In this document: positions 2,016-15,474 of the stretch, piece after piece | Layout: the number at the start of each line of letters is the position of its first letter | How positions within the stretch are numbered: the first letter of the stretch is position 1 | IMG/VR virus record: IMGVR_UViG_2660238360_000003 | Reading direction: 5' to 3' (one strand) | DNA from: a virus | Taxonomy: Duplodnaviria > Heunggongvirae > Uroviricota > Caudoviricetes | Length of the DNA stretch: 15,474 bases | The notes under the pieces: generated by a model | Database searches by the model: none | Told to the model about the DNA's origin: nothing | The model's input: only the letters and a program-made list of their open reading frames with translations | Made by a program: the position numbers and the translations under genes

Positions 2016-3434
2016 ATGAAATATTTCTCAACTGGTTTTTATGTTTCAAACTCCACATCTCTAGCTGAGATCTTTAATGAATGTTTTTCTTGGGTAAACG
2101 ACTCACCACATACAACTTTTATTCCAGCACAATTAGTATGTGATTATAAAAGCGAGGAGTACTTCATAGAGTCTAAAAATGAAAGAATTGATATAATAAC
2201 TTATAAAAACAAAGATACTAGTTTAGGCTGTTTTAGGTATTCGAAAATATCTGAGCCACACAAATGGGTAACAGATATTTCAATTAATAAAAATCTCAAA
2301 ACTGATACCATGTGGATTCAGGTGGAATCTAGCGTTGTAAGCCAAGATGCAGCTTATCTAGCCCCGCAACCTAAGAAACCATTAGTTGTTATGAGATTGA
2401 TTGATAAATTTTCTGGTGGTCTTGATGATATTTTCAAGGTGTCAGTCGAACCTCATTCCTTAGATGATACTGATGAACATTTAAATATAGCAGCTAAAGT
2501 TATAAATGGTGAAACTGACAACAGACTACCAATAATATACGTTAGCTCCAAGTATTTTTTTAATGAACATGCTCACAATATCATCCCAGAACGCCTTGCA
2601 AGAAAGGTATGCGGATTAGCACATGTATTAATTGAGCCTAGCAATAGACTATTTTCTATTAAGCTAAAAAATGAGACAAATGCTAAAAATGCCTATGCTG
2701 GTGCTGTTGGTATCTATTGGCCACGGGGTCAAAATATCAGTTTTTATCGCCGTGGTGAGAAAACCGCAAAAGAATTTGAAGATGAGTTATTTGATGATGT
2801 TGTAAGAGCTACGACTACAATGGCTCCTGTCTCAGATAGTGGATGGAGTGAGATACAAACCAGAAAAACGAAAGACTCTATTAACTCACTCAAAGAAAGA
2901 GGAGAATACACACGCGAACTGATGGCGCTTTACGAAGCCGATAATGTTGCGAAAGATGACCAAATAGAAGATCTTAAGCATAAGATCTCCTCTTTAGAGC
3001 ACAGAGTACGCACTCTTCAATCACAAGCTTCAGCCCAAGGAAGCATTGTGCTTAATGCTGGTGAAGAGACTGATTTTTTTGATGGAGAAATCAAAAATAT
3101 AATTATTGACGCACTAAAAACTGCCATAAAAAATAAAAATGAATTTGGTAGAAGCTACCATATCTTATCATCCCTAATTGCCAATAATGAATACAATAAA
3201 GAAACCGAGAGTCGCCGCCAATTACTTAAAAGGACTTTAACAGGTTACAGAAGCATGGATAGCGCAACACAAAGAAATTTAAAGGACTTAGGTTTCAGTG
3301 CGTCAAGCGATGGAAAACACTGGAAGTTAACATATAATGAAGACCCTCGATATTCCTATATTTTACCTAAAACAGGAAGTGACCACAGAGGTTCTTTAAA
3401 TGCTATCTCGGATATAGCAAACATTATTTTCTAA
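2016..3434 (+). CDS. hypothetical protein (472 aa), AT-rich accessory (moron) gene of unknown function; candidate anti-phage/abortive-infection protein
   Basis: Long uninterrupted ORF in a visibly AT-rich segment where random ORFs are short; ATG preceded by AAGGAA; opposite strand to the flanking pR-operon genes; followed by a strong hairpin; no Walker A or other motif I can assign. Confidence 0.8.
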   Translation: MKYFSTGFYVSNSTSLAEIFNECFSWVNDSPHTTFIPAQLVCDYKSEEYFIESKNERIDIITYKNKDTSLGCFRYSKISEPHKWVTDISINKNLKTDTMWIQVESSVVSQDAAYLAPQPKKPLVVMRLIDKFSGGLDDIFKVSVEPHSLDDTDEHLNIAAKVINGETDNRLPIIYVSSKYFFNEHAHNIIPERLARKVCGLAHVLIEPSNRLFSIKLKNETNAKNAYAGAVGIYWPRGQNISFYRRGEKTAKEFEDELFDDVVRATTTMAPVSDSGWSEIQTRKTKDSINSLKERGEYTRELMALYEADNVAKDDQIEDLKHKISSLEHRVRTLQSQASAQGSIVLNAGEETDFFDGEIKNIIIDALKTAIKNKNEFGRSYHILSSLIANNEYNKETESRRQLLKRTLTGYRSMDSATQRNLKDLGFSASSDGKHWKLTYNEDPRYSYILPKTGSDHRGSLNAISDIANIIF

Positions 3435-5802: not shown

Positions 5803-6342
5803 TCATATTGCCCCCAGCATGGTGGTCACCATCGCCATTAATGGACCAGCCAGATCCGGGTCCACACGAAACATCGACACAATACCTTCACTCATTTCCT
5901 TCAGTTTCTGGTGGCGTGGTGCGTTGAGAATGACAGCCTGTTTTGCCTCACTGAGTTCCTTTTCCATTTCAGCCAACCGAGTCATGAAGCTATCCTGCTC
6001 AACCAGGTAACCGCGATATTCCAGCGGTAGTACCGCCAGAATTGCCGGGGTCAGTTCACGCACGTTATTTCGGTATTTTTCAGAATCGAATTTGTTATCG
6101 AGGAAGCGGAACAGCTTCTGGCGTGCACGGCTGACATCATCAGGGAAATCGATGGTGCCGTCGCCCTGCTCCCGATACTCATTCACAATGAGTGCGGCAA
6201 CGACATCCTGATTATCTACAGCCGACCAGGCGCGGACGGCATCACGGATTTTTTCGTGGCCTGGAGCTTGTTTTGTTTGAGAACGATTTATCACCGCAGT
6301 CGGAATAAATCCGCTAGTCTGTTGGTATGTAAGTGGTTGCAT
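5803..6342 (-). CDS. YdaT-family protein in the cII position (179 aa)
   Basis: ATG preceded by AAGGAG; segment ELTPAILAVLPLEYRGYL resembles my recollection of Rac YdaT; sits between cro-like gene and O. Confidence 0.55.
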   Translation of the reverse strand: MQPLTYQQTSGFIPTAVINRSQTKQAPGHEKIRDAVRAWSAVDNQDVVAALIVNEYREQGDGTIDFPDDVSRARQKLFRFLDNKFDSEKYRNNVRELTPAILAVLPLEYRGYLVEQDSFMTRLAEMEKELSEAKQAVILNAPRHQKLKEMSEGIVSMFRVDPDLAGPLMAMVTTMLGAI

Positions 6343-6411
6343 AATTGACTCCTTTAGTTTGAATTGACTGTTAAGTTGATTGCTTATTGTTAAAGAGCGT
6401 GAAATGGAAAT

Positions 6412-6642
6412 TTAAGCTGCGTTCTTTTCGGTGTGTGGAAACAACTTCGGAAGATCCGGGCGAATCTGGTATGCCTTCACAACTCCACCAGTAGCCGTAA
6501 CAATGCTGCCGACATGTTCAGGGGATACCTTTGCTTTGTTGTGAAGCCACTTATAGACGGCCTGCTGTGAAACTTCGCAGGCATCGCCTAGTTTCTTTTG
6601 TGAACCAACGATATTGATCGCTGTTTTGATTGCTGGGTTCAT
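6412..6642 (-). CDS. cro: Cro-like HTH regulator (YdaS family, 76 aa)
   Basis: MNPAIKTAINIVGSQKKLGDACEVSQQAVYKWL...ATGGVVKAYQIRPDLPKLF; GGAGG RBS 5 nt upstream of ATG; divergent from the repressor gene. Confidence 0.75.
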   Translation of the reverse strand: MNPAIKTAINIVGSQKKLGDACEVSQQAVYKWLHNKAKVSPEHVGSIVTATGGVVKAYQIRPDLPKLFPHTEKNAA

Positions 6643-6746
6643 AACAACCTCCGTGGTTAATCCGAATAAAGATTAAAACTATGGTTGTTTTTAGTCAACA
6701 ACCATTTTCGTTTGATGAAATAAAACCTTGGTTGTACATTTGATCT
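6643..6746. promoter_or_regulatory. OR-like divergent control region: palindromic operator ATGGTTGTT-N7-AACAACCAT (6681-6705), second GGTTGT site (6728-6736), candidate pR and candidate leaderless pRM
   Basis: pR candidate on minus strand: -35 TTGACT (plus-strand 6693-6698) and -10 TAATCT (plus-strand 6670-6675); pRM candidate on plus strand: -35 TTGATG 6712-6717, 17-bp spacer, -10 TACATT 6735-6740, which places +1 at the cI ATG 6747, and cI has no Shine-Dalgarno. Confidence 0.55.
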
Positions 6747-7436
6747 ATGAAAACAACACTCTCAGAAAGACTTAAAGAAGCCAGATTAGCGCGAGGCCTT
6801 ACACAAAAGGCGCTTGGGGATTTGGTCGGGGTTAGCCAGGCTGCTATTCAGAAAATCGAAACAGGGAAAGCTAACCAAACAACTAAAATCGTGGAGATCG
6901 CGAACGCTTTGGGTGTGCGCGCAGAATGGTTATCTTCTGGCGTTGGAAATATGTCAGACAGTACAGTGCAACCAATACAATCAACTGTCAGCCATTCCAA
7001 ATACTTCAAAATTGACGTTCTTGATATAGAAGTCAGTGCCGGGCCAGGTGTAATCAACCGTGAGTTTGTAGAAGTTCTACGCTCGGTTGAGTACTCGTTT
7101 GACGATGCTCGTCACATGTTCGATGGCAGGAAGGCGGAAAATATCCGCATCATTAACGTGCGAGGTGACAGCATGTCAGGGACGATCGAACCAGGTGACC
7201 TGCTGTTCGTTGATATCACTGTTAAATCTTTCGACGGTGATGGCATCTATGCGTTTCTGTACGACGACACTGCCCATGTAAAACGTCTTCAAATGATGAA
7301 GGATAAGCTGCTGGTTATCTCTGATAACAAGAGCTACTCGCCGTGGGACCCGATCGAGAAAGACGAGATGAACCGGGTGTTCATATTCGGTAAGGTCATT
7401 GGAAGCATGCCGCAGACGTACAGGAAGCATGGTTAA
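6747..7436 (+). CDS. cI: CI-like prophage repressor (N-terminal HTH-XRE, C-terminal S24 LexA-like peptidase; 229 aa), not lambda immunity
   Basis: LTQKALGDLVGVSQAAIQKIETGK helix-turn-helix; C-terminal GDSMSGTIEPGDLLFVD...AHVKRL self-cleavage motifs; divergent from cro. Confidence 0.9.
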   Translation: MKTTLSERLKEARLARGLTQKALGDLVGVSQAAIQKIETGKANQTTKIVEIANALGVRAEWLSSGVGNMSDSTVQPIQSTVSHSKYFKIDVLDIEVSAGPGVINREFVEVLRSVEYSFDDARHMFDGRKAENIRIINVRGDSMSGTIEPGDLLFVDITVKSFDGDGIYAFLYDDTAHVKRLQMMKDKLLVISDNKSYSPWDPIEKDEMNRVFIFGKVIGSMPQTYRKHG

Positions 7437-7665
7437 TTTATCTACGACTTAAGGGAGCGAAGGTTAAGGTTTATACCACTCGGATTAGATATTGCACTAA
7501 ATTCTCTATAAGAACGCCAAATCTGTTTGCATATTTCAGTAAATATTCTCGTTGTTAGCTGAGATTTGTTGCTACTGTCAGCAAAATGTCCCCCTATCTC
7601 GTAGCGGTTTTTATTTCGAATCATTATGTTAAGATGTTTCTGATTATAATGAATGGAAACATAAA

Positions 7666-8046
7666 ATGAGAAAAATCCTAATCGCTGCCATGATGGCATC
7701 TGTATTGGCTGGGTGTGCTTCTTCAGGCAACCAGCAACTCAAAAATGAAACTGAAATTAGTGTCCAGTCTAAACTTCAGGAAGGTAAAACAACCAAGAAT
7801 GAGGTTAAATCTTACTTTGGTTCTCCTGATGCTGTTTCATATACTGACAGTGGAAACGAGATCTGGAAGTACGCCTTTGCAAAAGTAAAAGTTAATGGCA
7901 CCACTTTTATTCCATTCTATGGATTATTCCATAATGGAACGAACGGTACGAAAAAAGAACTTACTATTCTTTTTAACGATGACACGATTAAGAAATACAC
8001 AATGTCAGAAACCCAAATAAACTCGAAATCAGGTTGGGCTGACTGA
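7666..8046 (+). CDS. lipoprotein (126 aa) with possible BamE/SmpA-OmlA-like domain, in the rexAB position downstream of cI
   Basis: Signal peptide MRKILIAAMMASVLAGC with lipobox LAGC; AT-rich; GGAAAC upstream of ATG; possible own -10 TATAAT at 7645-7650; GKTTKNEVKSYFGSPD...WKYAF...LTILFN pattern recalls BamE-type lipoproteins. Confidence 0.75.
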   Translation: MRKILIAAMMASVLAGCASSGNQQLKNETEISVQSKLQEGKTTKNEVKSYFGSPDAVSYTDSGNEIWKYAFAKVKVNGTTFIPFYGLFHNGTNGTKKELTILFNDDTIKKYTMSETQINSKSGWAD

Positions 8047-8053
8047 TAATCAT

Positions 8054-8082
8054 ACCCGGCAACCGCGCCGGGTTTTCTTTTC
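8054..8082 (+). terminator. rho-independent terminator after the cI-lipoprotein unit
   Basis: Stem ACCCGGC / GCCGGGT with 6-nt loop, followed by TTTCTTTTCC. Confidence 0.8.
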
Positions 8083-8189
8083 CTCCCCCTCATAACTCAT
8101 ACCGTCCAAAAAACCACCACACCTCACTTCAGTTATCGCTATGCGATGCAAGTCACAAAATAAATCCATCCTAAATACAACCAGTTATA

Positions 8190-8250
8190 TTTAAAACAAC
8201 CGACAAAACAACTTTTGTTGTTGACGATAAAACAACTATAGTTTTAAATT
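8190..8250 (+). promoter_or_regulatory. candidate pL promoter and OL operator(s)
   Basis: -35 TTGACG 8221-8226, 17-bp spacer, -10 TTAAAT 8244-8249; inverted repeat AACAAC-TTTT-GTTGTT (8207-8222) overlaps the -35 and shares the hexamer with the OR palindrome. Confidence 0.45.
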
Positions 8251-8323
8251 AAATTCATCGCAACGACACAACGATACGGTAACCACCTGTTTCACCGTTG
8301 CGATGACCGCTTAGATCCGCAGT

Positions 8324-8734
8324 TTGAATTTCAGCAGGCTTCGGGGAGTGCGAGGGGTGAAACGGACGCGTGAACGTCGGTGTGACCAGCTGAAATCAAC
8401 ACAACACTTTATACCTCAGTCGCTTCAACGAGGCGGCTTAGTTATGACAACCGGCGGCCATCCACCGCCTGAATACGCGCAGAAGTCTCTATATGTTCAG
8501 CAGCCCAGCTTACGGGCAGGAGTTTTTATGGTTCATCAACATTACGGAACGCAGACCGTTAATCGCGGTGCGGTCATGCCAGGAATGCTGGTCAAACACA
8601 AAGATGGTACCTGGACTGCATCAGCTAATTTACGCGGACGGCTTTATCTGCATCGCGGCATCGAGCGCACTTATACCCGTGATTTGCTCGTAGAAGTTTT
8701 TCTCGACGGACGCGGTAACGGCCTGAATCACTAA
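8324..8734 (+). CDS. hypothetical protein at the head of the early-left operon (N / kil-cIII position); start uncertain (TTG 8324, GTG about 8351, ATG 8444, or ATG 8528 with AGGAG RBS)
   Basis: Open frame immediately upstream of gam; N-terminal region has an arginine-rich stretch KRTRERR reminiscent of N-protein ARMs, but the rest is unrecognised. Confidence 0.45.
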
Positions 8735-8809
8735 TCCCCTTTCCTGTTTTCCTAATCAGCCTGGCATTTCGCGGGCGATATTTTCACAGCCATTTTCAGG
8801 AGTTCAGCC

Positions 8810-11739: not shown

Positions 11740-12342
11740 TCATTCAGTATCATCACGCGCGGTCTGTGCATATGTCACTACCGCACCTAATATATTAATT
11801 TTCTTTTCAACATAGATAATATTATCGTACTCATAATTGCCATACGGATAGCAAATGCGAATATTCTCATGTAGATCGGGGTCATCCACCTCAGCTCCAG
11901 AACAACTTTTTGAACTACCGGAAGTATACCGATACGGTGCAACGTAAGACGATGTCTCTCCAGGCAAAAAATAAGTTAGTGTCGTAAGGGGTATAATCAG
12001 AAAAAATCCAGCAAATATGCACATCCCTGCATAAACCTTAAGGTATGCTGACAGACTCTTCCAGCCGCTTTGTTTTACTATCCCCTTCTTAACCCAAAAC
12101 AGAGATAACAGAAAAGCTATTCCCATGCTAAACAGAATGTAATAGTGGGATATACTCTGATTAAGAAACGTGACCCTGTAGATATCTGCCCGCCACCAGA
12201 AGAAAAGGAAAATAAAGATCAGCCCTGAAACTGTCATGCAAATCAAATAAGGATACGAATCTTTTTTCATGTTTAGCGCCCATAAAATTTTTCCTGACCC
12301 GGACAAATTTACCATCCATTTTTTGCGCAGAAAATAGCTCAT
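11740..12342 (-). CDS. hypothetical integral membrane protein (about 175-200 aa, three predicted TM segments, soluble C-terminal tail), AT-rich accessory gene
   Basis: Hydrophobic stretches YLICMTVSGLIFIFLFFWW, YYILFSMGIAFLLSLFWV, VYAGMCIFAGFFLIIPLTTLTYFL; opposite strand to the pL operon; occupies the position of lambda ea22/ea8.5; start ambiguous (ATG at 12342, 12315 or 12270, none with a strong RBS). Confidence 0.6.
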   Translation of the reverse strand: MSYFLRKKWMVNLSGSGKILWALNMKKDSYPYLICMTVSGLIFIFLFFWWRADIYRVTFLNQSISHYYILFSMGIAFLLSLFWVKKGIVKQSGWKSLSAYLKVYAGMCIFAGFFLIIPLTTLTYFLPGETSSYVAPYRYTSGSSKSCSGAEVDDPDLHENIRICYPYGNYEYDNIIYVEKKINILGAVVTYAQTARDDTE

Positions 12343-12789: not shown

Positions 12790-13008
12790 ATGTACTTGAC
12801 ACTTCAGGAGTGGAACGCTCGCCAGCGACGCCCAAGAAGCCTTGAAACAGTTCGTCGATGGGTGCGCGAATGCAGGATATTCCCTCCTCCGGTTAAGGAT
12901 GGAAGAGAATATCTGTTCCACGAATCAGCGGTAAAGGTTGACTTAAATCGACCAGTAACAGGTAGCCTTTTGAAGAGGATCAGAAATGGGAAGAAGGCGA
13001 AGTCATGA
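12790..13008 (+). CDS. xis: excisionase Xis (lambda-type), 72 aa
   Basis: MYLTLQEWNARQRRPRSLETVRRWVRECRIFPPPVKDGREYLFHESAVKVDLNRPVTGSLLKRIRNGKKAKS matches lambda Xis; 3' end overlaps int as in lambda. Confidence 0.95.
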   Translation: MYLTLQEWNARQRRPRSLETVRRWVRECRIFPPPVKDGREYLFHESAVKVDLNRPVTGSLLKRIRNGKKAKS

Positions 13009-14056
13009 GCGCCGGGATTTACCCCCTAACCTTTATATAAGAAACAATGGATATTACTGCTACAGGGACCCAAGGACGGGTAAAGAGTTTGGATTAGGCC
13101 GAGACAGGCGAATCGCAATCACTGAAGCTATACAGGCCAACATTGAGTTATTTTCAGGACACAAACACAAGCCTCTGACAGCGAGAATCAACAGTGATAA
13201 TTCCGTTACGTTACATTCATGGCTTGATCGCTACGAAAAAATCCTGGCCAGCAGAGGAATCAAGCAGAAGACACTCATAAATTACATGAGCAAAATTAAA
13301 GCAATAAGGAGGGGTCTGCCTGATGCTCCACTTGAAGACATCACCACAAAAGAAATTGCGGCAATGCTCAATGGATACATAGACGAGGGCAAGGCGGCGT
13401 CAGCCAAGTTAATCAGATCAACACTGAGCGATGCATTCCGAGAGGCAATAGCTGAAGGCCATATAACAACAAACCCTGTCGCTGCCACTCGCGCAGCAAA
13501 ATCAGAGGTAAGGAGATCAAGACTTACGGCTGACGAATACCTGAAAATTTATCAAGCAGCAGAATCATCACCATGTTGGCTCAGACTTGCAATGGAACTG
13601 GCTGTTGTTACCGGGCAACGAGTTGGTGATTTATGCGAAATGAAGTGGTCTGATATCGTAGATGGATATCTTTATGTCGAGCAAAGCAAAACAGGCGTAA
13701 AAATTGCCATCCCAACAACATTGCATGTTGATGCTCTCGGGATATCAATGAAGGAAACACTTGATAAATGCAAAGAGATTCTTGGCGGAGAAACCATAAT
13801 TGCATCTACTCGTCGCGAACCGCTTTCATCCGGCACAGTATCAAGGTATTTTATGCGCGCACGAAAAGCATCAGGTCTTTCCTTCGAAGGGGATCCGCCT
13901 ACCTTTCACGAGTTGCGCAGTTTGTCTGCAAGACTCTATGAGAAGCAGATAAGCGATAAGTTTGCTCAACATCTTCTCGGGCATAAGTCGGACACCATGG
14001 CATCACAGTATCGTGATGACAGAGGCAGGGAGTGGGACAAAATTGAAATCAAATAA
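12986..14056 (+). CDS. int: tyrosine integrase Int (lambda-type), 356 aa
   Basis: MGRRRSHERRDLPPNLYIRNNGYYCYRDPRTGKEFGLGRDRRIAITEAIQANIELFSGHKHKPL... near-identical to lambda Int as I recall it, including the C-terminal catalytic region (...HELRSLSARLYEKQ...HLLGHKSDTMASQYRD). Confidence 0.97.
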   Translation: MGRRRSHERRDLPPNLYIRNNGYYCYRDPRTGKEFGLGRDRRIAITEAIQANIELFSGHKHKPLTARINSDNSVTLHSWLDRYEKILASRGIKQKTLINYMSKIKAIRRGLPDAPLEDITTKEIAAMLNGYIDEGKAASAKLIRSTLSDAFREAIAEGHITTNPVAATRAAKSEVRRSRLTADEYLKIYQAAESSPCWLRLAMELAVVTGQRVGDLCEMKWSDIVDGYLYVEQSKTGVKIAIPTTLHVDALGISMKETLDKCKEILGGETIIASTRREPLSSGTVSRYFMRARKASGLSFEGDPPTFHELRSLSARLYEKQISDKFAQHLLGHKSDTMASQYRDDRGREWDKIEIK

Positions 14057-14190: not shown

Positions 14191-15474
14191 GTGAACACAT
14201 TTTCAGTTTCCCGTCTGGCGCTGGCATTGGCTTTTGGCGTGACGCTGACCGCCTGTAGCTCAACCCCGCCCGATCAACGTCCTTCTGATCAAACCGCGCC
14301 TGGTACCTCTTCTCGCCCGATTCTGTCGGCAAAAGAAGCGCAGAATTTCGATGCTCAACACTATTTTGCATCCCTGACACCAGGTGCTGCAGCGTGGAAT
14401 CCTTCCCCGATTACCCTGCCTGCGCAACCTGACTTTGTTGTCGGCCCGGCGGGCACTCAAGGTGTAACGCATACCACGATTCAGGCGGCGGTAGATGCGG
14501 CAATTATCAAGCGTACCAACAAGCGCCAGTATATTGCCGTGATGCCTGGTGAGTATCAGGGAACGGTATATGTCCCTGCCGCTCCGGGTGGAATTACTCT
14601 GTACGGTACAGGTGAAAAACCGATTGATGTGAAGATTGGGCTTTCCCTTGATGGTGGCATGAGCCCTGCCGACTGGCGTCACGACGTCAACCCGCGCGGC
14701 AAATATATGCCAGGTAAACCAGCGTGGTATATGTACGATAGCTGCCAGAGCAAACGCAGCGACAGTATCGGTGTTCTCTGCTCTGCGGTCTTCTGGTCAC
14801 AAAACAATGGCCTGCAACTGCAAAATCTGACCATCGAAAACACGCTGGGCGATAGCGTAGATGCAGGTAACCATCCGGCGGTGGCACTGCGTACTGATGG
14901 TGACCAGGTACAGATTAACAACGTTAACATTCTCGGTCGTCAGAACACCTTCTTTGTCACCAACAGCGGTGTGCAGAACCGTCTGGAAACGAATCGTCAG
15001 CCGCGTACGCTGGTGACCAACAGCTACATTGAAGGGGATGTGGATATCGTTTCTGGTCGCGGCGCAGTGGTGTTCGATAACACCGAATTCCGCGTGGTGA
15101 ACTCACGTACTCAGCAAGAAGCGTATGTGTTTGCACCGGCTACGCTGTCCAACATTTACTACGGTTTCCTCGCCGTAAACAGCCGTTTCAATGCTTTCGG
15201 TGATGGTGTGGCGCAACTGGGCCGCTCGCTGGATGTTGATGCCAATACCAACGGTCAGGTGGTGATCCGTGATAGCGCCATCAACGAAGGTTTTAACACG
15301 GCTAAACCGTGGGCCGATGCGGTGATCTCTAATCGTCCGTTTGCGGGTAATACCGGCAGCGTAGATGATAACGACGAAATACAGCGCAATCTGAATGACA
15401 CTAACTACAACCGCATGTGGGAATACAATAACCGCGGCGTGGGTAGTAAAGTGGTTGCAGAGGCGAAGAAGTAA
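14191..15474 (+). CDS. ybhC: YbhC outer-membrane lipoprotein (pectinesterase-like / acyl-CoA thioesterase), 427 aa; chromosomal gene flanking att-lambda
   Basis: GTG start preceded by GGAG; signal peptide with lipobox LTAC; sequence and length match my recall of E. coli YbhC; GC content typical of the E. coli core genome. Confidence 0.9.
   Translation: MNTFSVSRLALALAFGVTLTACSSTPPDQRPSDQTAPGTSSRPILSAKEAQNFDAQHYFASLTPGAAAWNPSPITLPAQPDFVVGPAGTQGVTHTTIQAAVDAAIIKRTNKRQYIAVMPGEYQGTVYVPAAPGGITLYGTGEKPIDVKIGLSLDGGMSPADWRHDVNPRGKYMPGKPAWYMYDSCQSKRSDSIGVLCSAVFWSQNNGLQLQNLTIENTLGDSVDAGNHPAVALRTDGDQVQINNVNILGRQNTFFVTNSGVQNRLETNRQPRTLVTNSYIEGDVDIVSGRGAVVFDNTEFRVVNSRTQQEAYVFAPATLSNIYYGFLAVNSRFNAFGDGVAQLGRSLDVDANTNGQVVIRDSAINEGFNTAKPWADAVISNRPFAGNTGSVDDNDEIQRNLNDTNYNRMWEYNNRGVGSKVVAEAKK

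Follow-up and report, generated by a model that had tools for sequence, protein, structure and literature searches.

A BamE-like lipoprotein gene in the rexAB slot of a lambda-like prophage, a candidate superinfection-exclusion moron

The lipoprotein gene and its place in the immunity region

The DNA considered here is a stretch of 15,474 nucleotides from a member of the Caudoviricetes (IMG/VR record IMGVR_UViG_2660238360_000003; the whole stretch is referred to as the window), and it is a lambda-like E. coli prophage. The plus strand carries, in order, the repressor gene cI (6747-7436), an open reading frame (ORF) with an ATG start for a 126-aa lipoprotein (7666-8046), an operator/promoter region, kil, gam, bet, exo, xis and int (12986-14056). 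An ORF with a Pectinesterase domain (14191-15474), which we take to be the host gene ybhC, comes after int, and the left side of the window carries on its minus strand cro, a YdaT-type cII analogue, O, P, ren and nin-region genes. The record of Escherichia phage PhiR26_1 contains a near-identical region; its copy of the lipoprotein gene matches at 100% identity and is labelled “hypothetical protein / putative lipoprotein”. The features of the immunity region, with the lipoprotein gene at its center, are as follows.

6412-6642, minus strand: cro-like regulator (YdaS/helix-turn-helix), divergent from cI; Pfam YdaS_toxin 6.3e-17 and P22_Cro 6.7e-5; annotated Cro in PhiR26_1
6664-6735, no strand: right operator (OR)/promoter region; inverted repeat ATGGTTGTT..AACAACCAT at 6681-6705; direct repeat D6 and mirror repeats I1/I3 in common with 8206-8256
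6747-7436, plus strand: cI-type repressor, 229 aa (helix-turn-helix and S24 autopeptidase); Pfam Peptidase_S24 1.2e-18 and HTH_3 5.4e-13; phrog_4 “transcriptional repressor” 8.7e-73; annotated cI in PhiR26_1
7437-7620, plus strand: AT-rich spacer that only the E. coli version of the cassette has; blastn/tblastx locate it solely beside lipoprotein genes of 99-100% identity, two of these loci having a different cI
7621-7665, plus strand: conserved upstream element, with a TG-extended -10-like sequence TGTTAAGAT at 7627-7635 (TG 7627-7628, hexamer 7630-7635), a short leader and a GGA Shine-Dalgarno sequence at 7655-7657
7666-8046, plus strand: lipoprotein gene; signal peptide aa 1-16 (7666-7713), lipidation residue Cys17 (7714-7716), conserved mature N-terminus C-A-S-S-G-N, BamE-like domain at about aa 30-122, inserted loop aa 77-89 with a conserved F-I-P motif
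8054-8083, plus strand: intrinsic terminator closing the cI-lipoprotein transcription unit; hairpin 8054-8073 (7-bp stem, 6 GC pairs) followed by TTTTCTTTT
8171-8256, no strand: left operators (OL) and pL-like promoter (TTGACG-18-TAAATT, 8221-8250) reading into kil-gam-bet-exo; recognized by repeats D2, I1, I3, I8 and I9, enrichment of AAAACAAC, the promoter scan and the downstream genes

The lipoprotein gene lies inside the immunity region, between cI and OL/pL. Mirror-oriented operator-like repeats flank the region (6664-6713 versus 8206-8256), with 28 nt at 82% and 26 nt at 73% complementarity, and the word AAAACAAC occurs seven times where 1.0 occurrence is expected. In lambda, rexA-rexB occupy the same slot downstream of the repressor. 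Because the window has a repressor gene upstream, mirror operator repeats, and a pL-like promoter followed by kil, gam, bet and exo, the position of the lipoprotein gene is equivalent to that of rexA-rexB, and the gene is co-oriented with the repressor, just as the original prediction, made from the sequence alone, had proposed.

The encoded protein begins with the signal peptide MRKILIAAMMASVLAG, followed by Cys17 in the lipobox L14-A15-G16-C17, with Ala at +2 and Ser at +3. Cys17 is invariant among 81 homologues, and G21, N22, P54, W67, Y69, P83 and F103 are nearly invariant across the alignment of the same family members. None of 84 relatives has Asp at +2, consistent with the earlier reading of an LAGC lipobox without this residue. 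The lipoprotein, which carries no inner-membrane retention residue, is predicted to be sorted to the outer membrane by the Lol pathway. The gene is AT-rich, as had also been pointed out, with a GC content of 0.381 overall and 0.354 at third codon positions, compared with 0.463 for the window and 0.47 for cI.

Several observations point to strong constraint on the family by purifying selection. The ratio of nonsynonymous to synonymous substitution rates (dN/dS) has a median of 0.044 over 741 pairs drawn from 81 distinct 381-nt alleles, and the length of 126 aa is conserved. An exhaustive search found 1332 cluster representatives at E ≤ 0.001 (clusters at 50% identity), and the identical protein is encoded on at least 1000 public contigs. 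Among 5426 complete E. coli genomes, 69 (1.3%) carry the gene; every copy is at least 99% identical and every copy is in prophage DNA. The idea that the ORF is decaying or meaningless and merely occupies the space between cI and OL, for which the only point is that the gene has no known function, is refuted by this conservation (dN/dS, constant length, invariant lipobox cysteine, and the number of cluster representatives and contigs), and we give it next to no credence.

Transcription signals around the gene

The gene is a moron, a self-contained accessory unit composed of a promoter-like element, a single gene and a terminator. The 45-nt element directly upstream of the start codon is 70-80% identical to that of the window in relatives whose third-codon identity is just 37-52%, and the region from -120 to -46 in these relatives is at background. 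The element accompanies the gene in both of the slots in which family members are inserted, after a repressor gene and before a tape-measure gene. Of 59 distinct upstream sequences, 33 have the motif TGnTAnnAT at -39 to -44, and in a Citrobacter locus (L008) the promoter scan scores the element as TTGACC-16-TAAGAT with an upstream TG. A promoter belonging to the gene itself is thereby predicted from sequence at the level of the family.

On the other side of the gene, the clean intrinsic terminator noted in the original prediction was recovered at 8054-8073, with a folding energy of −14 kcal/mol (z = −3.65) that was reached by none of 200 shuffled sequences. A hairpin and T-run follow the gene in most related loci, and Salmonella phage S107 has terminators on both sides of the lipoprotein gene, the textbook arrangement of a moron. 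Composition and mobility are also those of a moron: the GC content deviates from that of its surroundings (0.38 versus 0.46), and the cassette recurs beside no fewer than seven repressor types as well as in a second slot.

The scan detected no terminator between cI and the lipoprotein gene (7570-7625 folds with z = −0.17), so that read-through from the cI transcript across 7437-7620 is possible. In one class of loci, the gene begins just 51 bp after cI and lacks the promoter motif, so that in this class it must be co-transcribed with cI. The earlier assumption was that the gene is expressed solely from the cI transcript; the gene has a conserved promoter-like element of its own. Expression in the lysogen, from this promoter and/or by read-through from cI, is well motivated by these signals.

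Several further sequence features in and near the upstream element were considered. A hairpin in the 5′ untranslated region (GTTTCT..GGAAAC, 7636-7660) that would mask the Shine-Dalgarno sequence was rejected: the fold is weak (−6.6 kcal/mol, z = −1.7) and the pairing is broken without compensation in several relatives. Moreover, if TAAGAT is the -10 hexamer, the 5′ arm of the hairpin would lie upstream of the likely start site. The sequence TAAGATGTTTCCGA matches 10 of the 14 positions of the RcsAB box consensus TaAGaatatTCcta; it overlaps the -10 hexamer and does not lie upstream of a -35, and is a weak lead as an RcsAB box. Both the promoter-like element and the ribosome-binding site fall within a long imperfect inverted repeat at 7608-7665 (27-nt arms separated by 4 nt and 74% complementary), and the upstream element of relatives contains the palindrome GATTGCAATC; these could be a binding site for a regulator or a hairpin for translational control. 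A permissive Rfam search of 6300-8800 yielded just two matches, both at chance level (E 0.66 and 0.8). The spacer of 229 bp that follows cI was also considered as a remnant of bstA or of a 302-aa Citrobacter gene, and was rejected because there was no similarity by blastn or tblastx. The minus-strand ORF at 7442-7699 has no Pfam match and is unannotated in PhiR26_1.

Elsewhere in the window, two additional ORFs deserve mention. An AT-rich ORF of 472 aa in the nin region (2016-3434, plus strand) is oriented opposite to its neighbors; it has no Pfam match, and PADLOC matches it just weakly, to HEC-07 (1e-9). In PhiR26_1, which is identical, its annotation is “PD-lambda-1”, an anti-phage defence gene. 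A 200-aa ORF (11740-12342, minus strand) with several hydrophobic stretches and no Pfam match is a possible further moron; it runs antisense to the early-left operon and is located between the exo-side genes and xis/int. The PhiR26_1 record contains four more envelope morons, encoding an OmpD-like porin (15616-16713), Bor (18489-18782), Lom (39522-40121) and an omptin-type protease (46781-47734), which suggests that the outer membrane of the lysogen is remodelled on several fronts.

Family identity and distribution among mobile elements

By sequence, the lipoprotein is assigned to the SEN1984/phrog_3135 family. It matches phrog_3135, a family of unknown function in PHROGs, at 2.9e-48 over residues 1-124, and PGAP names the same gene “SEN1984 family lipoprotein” in three RefSeq genomes; the NCBIfam release that was searched does not include the SEN1984 model itself. 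The sole published description of SEN1984, from the ROD21 island of Salmonella Enteritidis, is that it is BamE-like by Phyre2.

The resemblance to BamE/SmpA-OmlA lipoproteins noticed in the original prediction holds. The Pfam model PF04355 (BamE/SmpA_OmlA) scores 21.8 bits on the lipoprotein, narrowly below the cut-off of 23.2, and 68 of 81 homologues individually match this domain at E ≤ 0.01. A profile of the family aligns with E. coli BamE over 92 columns with 93% probability, and with BamE entries in the PDB at E = 0.017 at best. The best viral structural matches are the SmpA/OmlA lipoproteins of Pseudomonas phages PP9W2 and B3. Based on structure modelling, the lipoprotein is predicted to be a single domain with a BamE/BLIP-like fold.

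Likeness to BamE, a lipoprotein subunit of the BAM complex for outer-membrane protein assembly, extends to the outer-membrane location expected of the lipoprotein, a similar size, a predicted fold of two helices and three strands, a lipoprotein signal peptide and lipobox without an inner-membrane retention signal, and an alignment over the whole domain that includes the G-x-T-x-x-x-V-x-x-x-x-G-x-P helix and the W-x-Y strand. The differences are nonetheless substantial. Identity is about 20%, and the lipoprotein has a 14-residue inserted loop (residues 77-89, modelled with a low predicted local distance difference test score) that contains the conserved F-I-P. In place of a flexible tether, the segment C-A-S-x-G-N follows the lipid anchor directly; 77 of about 84 relatives conserve it, and the model builds it into the sheet, which would leave almost no tether. 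Lastly, the gene is an accessory gene of mobile elements, not a core gene, given its rarity among complete E. coli genomes (1.3%). None of the 16 NCBIfam matches at E ≤ 1 is a curated model of BamE orthologues. Because of this missing match, the low identity, the insertion, the near absence of a tether, and the rarity of an accessory gene, the lipoprotein is not the BamE orthologue. RefSeq labels for the E. coli gene are inconsistent: mostly “outer membrane protein assembly factor BamE”, once “BamD”, and otherwise hypothetical protein or, in the newest annotations only, “SEN1984 family lipoprotein”. The names BamE and BamD have no support from orthology, and the use of “BamE” for the family is an over-annotation.

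The genomic contexts of the closest relatives were surveyed in 80 IMG/VR loci (viral contigs). In 54 of them, a repressor gene of one of at least seven types lies upstream on the same strand; in 21, the gene is directly upstream of the tape-measure gene; five were left unclassified. In two loci, a 99% identical gene and the same spacer lie beside a different cI, which shows the cassette to be mobile between immunity regions. Citrobacter and Enterobacter prophages invariably have the gene behind the repressor and in its orientation, either directly or after one or two other accessory genes, and it is the last gene before the pL side. Salmonella phage S107 has the order cI, BstA (PADLOC 9e-100) and lipoprotein gene, and BstA likewise shares the slot with the lipoprotein gene in locus L174. 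Insertion before the tape-measure gene is likewise seen in Klebsiella phage RAH1, Alteromonas phage P24, Pseudomonas phage U7 and a myovirus-like E. coli phage-plasmid, and in Pseudomonas phage Lodos the gene adjoins the integrase gene.

Other genes associated with these slots were noted in passing. In S107, BstA (L002 2989-3911) is split into ORFs of 255 aa and 62 aa that correspond to positions 3-238 and 237-291 of the BstA model, which suggests a frameshift or a sequencing error. A gene of 68-76 aa, convergent to the lipoprotein gene and right downstream of it, occurs in Citrobacter, Enterobacter and Salmonella prophages (L008 6413-6619, L012 6510-6722 and L002 4423-4650, all minus strand) and recurs in many IMG/VR loci; it is absent from the window, has no Pfam match on record and has no PADLOC match. 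Between cI and the lipoprotein gene, Citrobacter prophages carry a 302-aa protein (L008 5003-5911) or proteins of 136 aa and 90 aa (L007 5113-5917), again with no Pfam match on record and no PADLOC match; these proteins are candidates for further lysogen-expressed functions.

Beyond phages, relatives are found on 135 plasmids, 100 of which are predicted to be conjugative, mostly from Burkholderia. On the Burkholderia conjugative plasmids, the homologue belongs to the cargo, with tra genes and a YadA-like adhesin gene nearby, an association that is suggestive, not diagnostic. For example, on Burkholderia glumae plasmid p85s3p (L179 8986-16250), the homologue is about 2 kb upstream of a 4.7-kb gene for a YadA-like trimeric autotransporter, which recalls TpgA, the BamE-like helper of Acinetobacter AtaA. 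Chromosomal relatives occur in many phyla. The genome scan for relatives used 13 closer sequences. The chromosomal neighbors were searched for a functional clue and gave none: they are heterogeneous, and the sole recurrent set (purA, hisS, ftsY, miaB-like) reflects synteny within the genus Bombella. The occurrence of chromosomal relatives in ordinary contexts indicates a widespread family of cellular lipoproteins from which copies have repeatedly been borrowed by mobile elements.

Candidate functions and comparison with known systems

The lipoprotein probably changes the envelope of the lysogen. Superinfection exclusion at the level of the envelope is the leading hypothesis for how this matters; it is drawn from genomic context and is held tentatively, as a plausible first choice that could well be wrong. 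The original prediction had proposed a Cor/Llp-like exclusion factor or interference with outer-membrane protein assembly, and this stays a hypothesis. Exclusion is ranked first because exclusion and defence morons are known to reside in both insertion slots, the one after cI and the one before the tape-measure gene. The mEpimmI Lpp lipoproteins, encoded in a structural gene cluster and shown to exclude phages, set a precedent. HK97 gp15, for instance, is encoded by an exclusion gene before the tape-measure gene, and RexAB and BstA cause abortive infection. The placement of the gene is also linked to lysogeny, with most of the surveyed loci (54/80) having it behind a co-oriented repressor and two of them, S107 and L174, having BstA as a companion. 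In the proposed mechanism, the lipoprotein would be produced in the lysogen from its own promoter with a TG-extended -10, and probably also by read-through of the repressor transcript. Lipidation at Cys17 would place the protein on the periplasmic face of the outer membrane, with the folded domain kept near the bilayer, since the fold already takes in the conserved C-A-S-x-G-N segment. The domain could then bind a conserved envelope protein through the surface by which this fold typically binds proteins, perhaps using the flexible loop with the conserved F-I-P. Proteins with this fold are known binders: BamE binds BamA and BamD, and BLIP binds beta-lactamase. As a consequence of the altered envelope, incoming phages or other DNA-delivery machines would fail at adsorption or at DNA passage, which amounts to superinfection exclusion in a broad sense.

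A number of observations weigh against this hypothesis. There is no detectable similarity to the known exclusion lipoproteins Cor and Llp: the four PHROG matches of the lipoprotein are all families of unknown function; a tblastn search of 50,697 phage records matched 18 records, none of which is T5, phi80, N15 or HK022; and the structural comparison proposed in the original prediction gave no Llp or Cor entry among the matches in the PDB or BFVD. No PADLOC defence model matches the lipoprotein. A link to one tail or receptor type was considered and rejected, given that PhiR26_1 has a tape-measure protein (lambda H) with no relation to that of S107 or to those of the tape-measure-adjacent loci, and that the J proteins of PhiR26_1 and S107 align only over the N-terminal 840 residues and differ at their C-termini. 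Slow evolution across phyla speaks for a partner that cells universally have, not for one specific to phages. In 76 species-representative genomes outside the close circle the neighbors of the gene are mostly ordinary chromosomal genes, and most relatives in non-enteric species have housekeeping genes around them. Expression in the lysogen is itself inferred, and the copy of the upstream element in the window has a poor -35 and is not called by the promoter scan. Finally, literature searches found no functional study of any SEN1984/phrog_3135 member, and no characterized phage lipoprotein of the BamE/OmlA type.

An alternative that we consider rather unlikely, if worth serious attention, is that the lipoprotein is a paralogue of BamE that docks on BamA/BamD or on nascent beta-barrels and tunes the assembly of outer-membrane proteins (OMPs) in the lysogen, with exclusion being at most a side effect. 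Such a protein could aid the insertion of the prophage's own barrel proteins, or could change the display of RcsF and OMPs. This model accounts for the homology to BamE over the whole domain, for a compartment and lipid anchor like those of BamE, and for conservation across diderm phyla, as expected of a universal partner; it also fits with the three barrel-protein morons of PhiR26_1 (OmpD-like porin, Lom and omptin). In a similar vein, direct binding of the AtaA beta-barrel by the BamE-like domain of TpgA is considered likely (bioRxiv 10.64898/2026.01.22.700529). The model is weakened by the features that separate the lipoprotein from BamE, namely the identity of just about 20%, the 14-residue insertion, the much shorter N-terminal tether and the lack of a match to any NCBIfam BamE model, and by the fact that the host retains its own bamE. 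A broader version, in which the lipoprotein is a phage-borne BamE mimic that works from the periplasmic side, within the machinery that assembles beta-barrels (BAM) or another universal outer-membrane machine, to reprogram surface display in the lysogen, strikes us as a long shot. If true, it would provide a new route to exclusion or resistance to competitors, via outer-membrane biogenesis and not via a single receptor, and the same trick would recur in siphoviruses, myovirus-like phage-plasmids, conjugative plasmids and genomic islands.

It is likewise somewhat improbable that the lipoprotein is a general envelope fitness or virulence factor like Bor or Lom, acting in stress tolerance, serum resistance or colonization and having no role in exclusion. 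Benefit to the host would explain carriage by phages, plasmids and islands, and is consistent with the many chromosomal copies in ordinary contexts, the location of the name-giving SEN1984 on the ROD21 pathogenicity island, the presence of the family on 135 plasmids, and the company of Bor, Lom and omptin in the same prophage. However, nothing specific points to such a phenotype, and recurrence in slots used for exclusion and defence would have to be a coincidence.

Clearly less probable is a model in which the lipoprotein is an orphan immunity or inhibitor protein against a periplasm-acting toxin or enzyme, such as a colicin M-like or lipid-targeting effector, an effector of a type VI secretion system (T6SS), or a phage tail lysin. 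The fold would suit this role: the lysogen would be protected in the manner of BLIP, which inhibits beta-lactamase, and of BtiO, which neutralizes a T6SS effector, and immunity to periplasmic toxins is a function that BamE-like proteins do have. The literature describes such immunity proteins as evolving rapidly, whereas the family evolves slowly (dN/dS 0.044). Moreover, no toxin gene adjoins the lipoprotein gene in the window, and none is recurrent among the neighbors in the 76 species loci. The same lack of an adjacent toxin or adhesin gene distinguishes the window gene from those for BLIP, T6SS BtiO, the immunity proteins of Lipocone toxins, and TpgA.

With superinfection exclusion retained as the leading hypothesis, the gene is a well-defined candidate for a lysogenic-conversion function at the outer membrane, given the use by its family of two prophage slots known for exclusion and defence, of conjugative plasmids and of a Salmonella pathogenicity island. 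Should the lipoprotein exclude phages, the few known exclusion lipoproteins would gain a member with a new fold and, probably, a target not seen before. Should it act on BAM instead, it would to our knowledge be the first mobile-element-encoded modulator of OMP assembly; searches of the literature turned up no such case. At minimum, the “BamE” annotation of the gene should be replaced, in a family of more than 1300 cluster representatives that is routinely mislabelled.

The closest parallels by position are RexAB and BstA, which are found in the same slot downstream of the repressor in the immunity region, with BstA beside the lipoprotein gene in S107. The proteins are unrelated, and the site of action would differ, since RexAB and BstA work from the cytoplasm or inner membrane and the lipoprotein is predicted to be exported to the outer membrane. 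The closest parallels by type of protein are Cor (phi80, N15, HK022 and mEp167), Llp (T5) and the Lpp lipoproteins of mEpimmI phages, all of which are lipoproteins of small size that phages encode and that are produced in the lysogen or early during infection. The mEpimmI Lpp genes are in the structural cluster, comparable to relatives of the lipoprotein gene within tail gene clusters, and their products have been shown experimentally to exclude phages depending on the receptor these use (PMC11893012). Unlike these systems, the lipoprotein gene is not linked to one receptor-binding tail type. SEN1984 is a member of the same BamE-like family and is also cargo of a mobile element; it differs in being on an excisable, mobilizable island and not in a prophage immunity region. 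The gene thus joins two known kinds, the lysogenic-conversion morons of prophages and the BamE-like superfamily.

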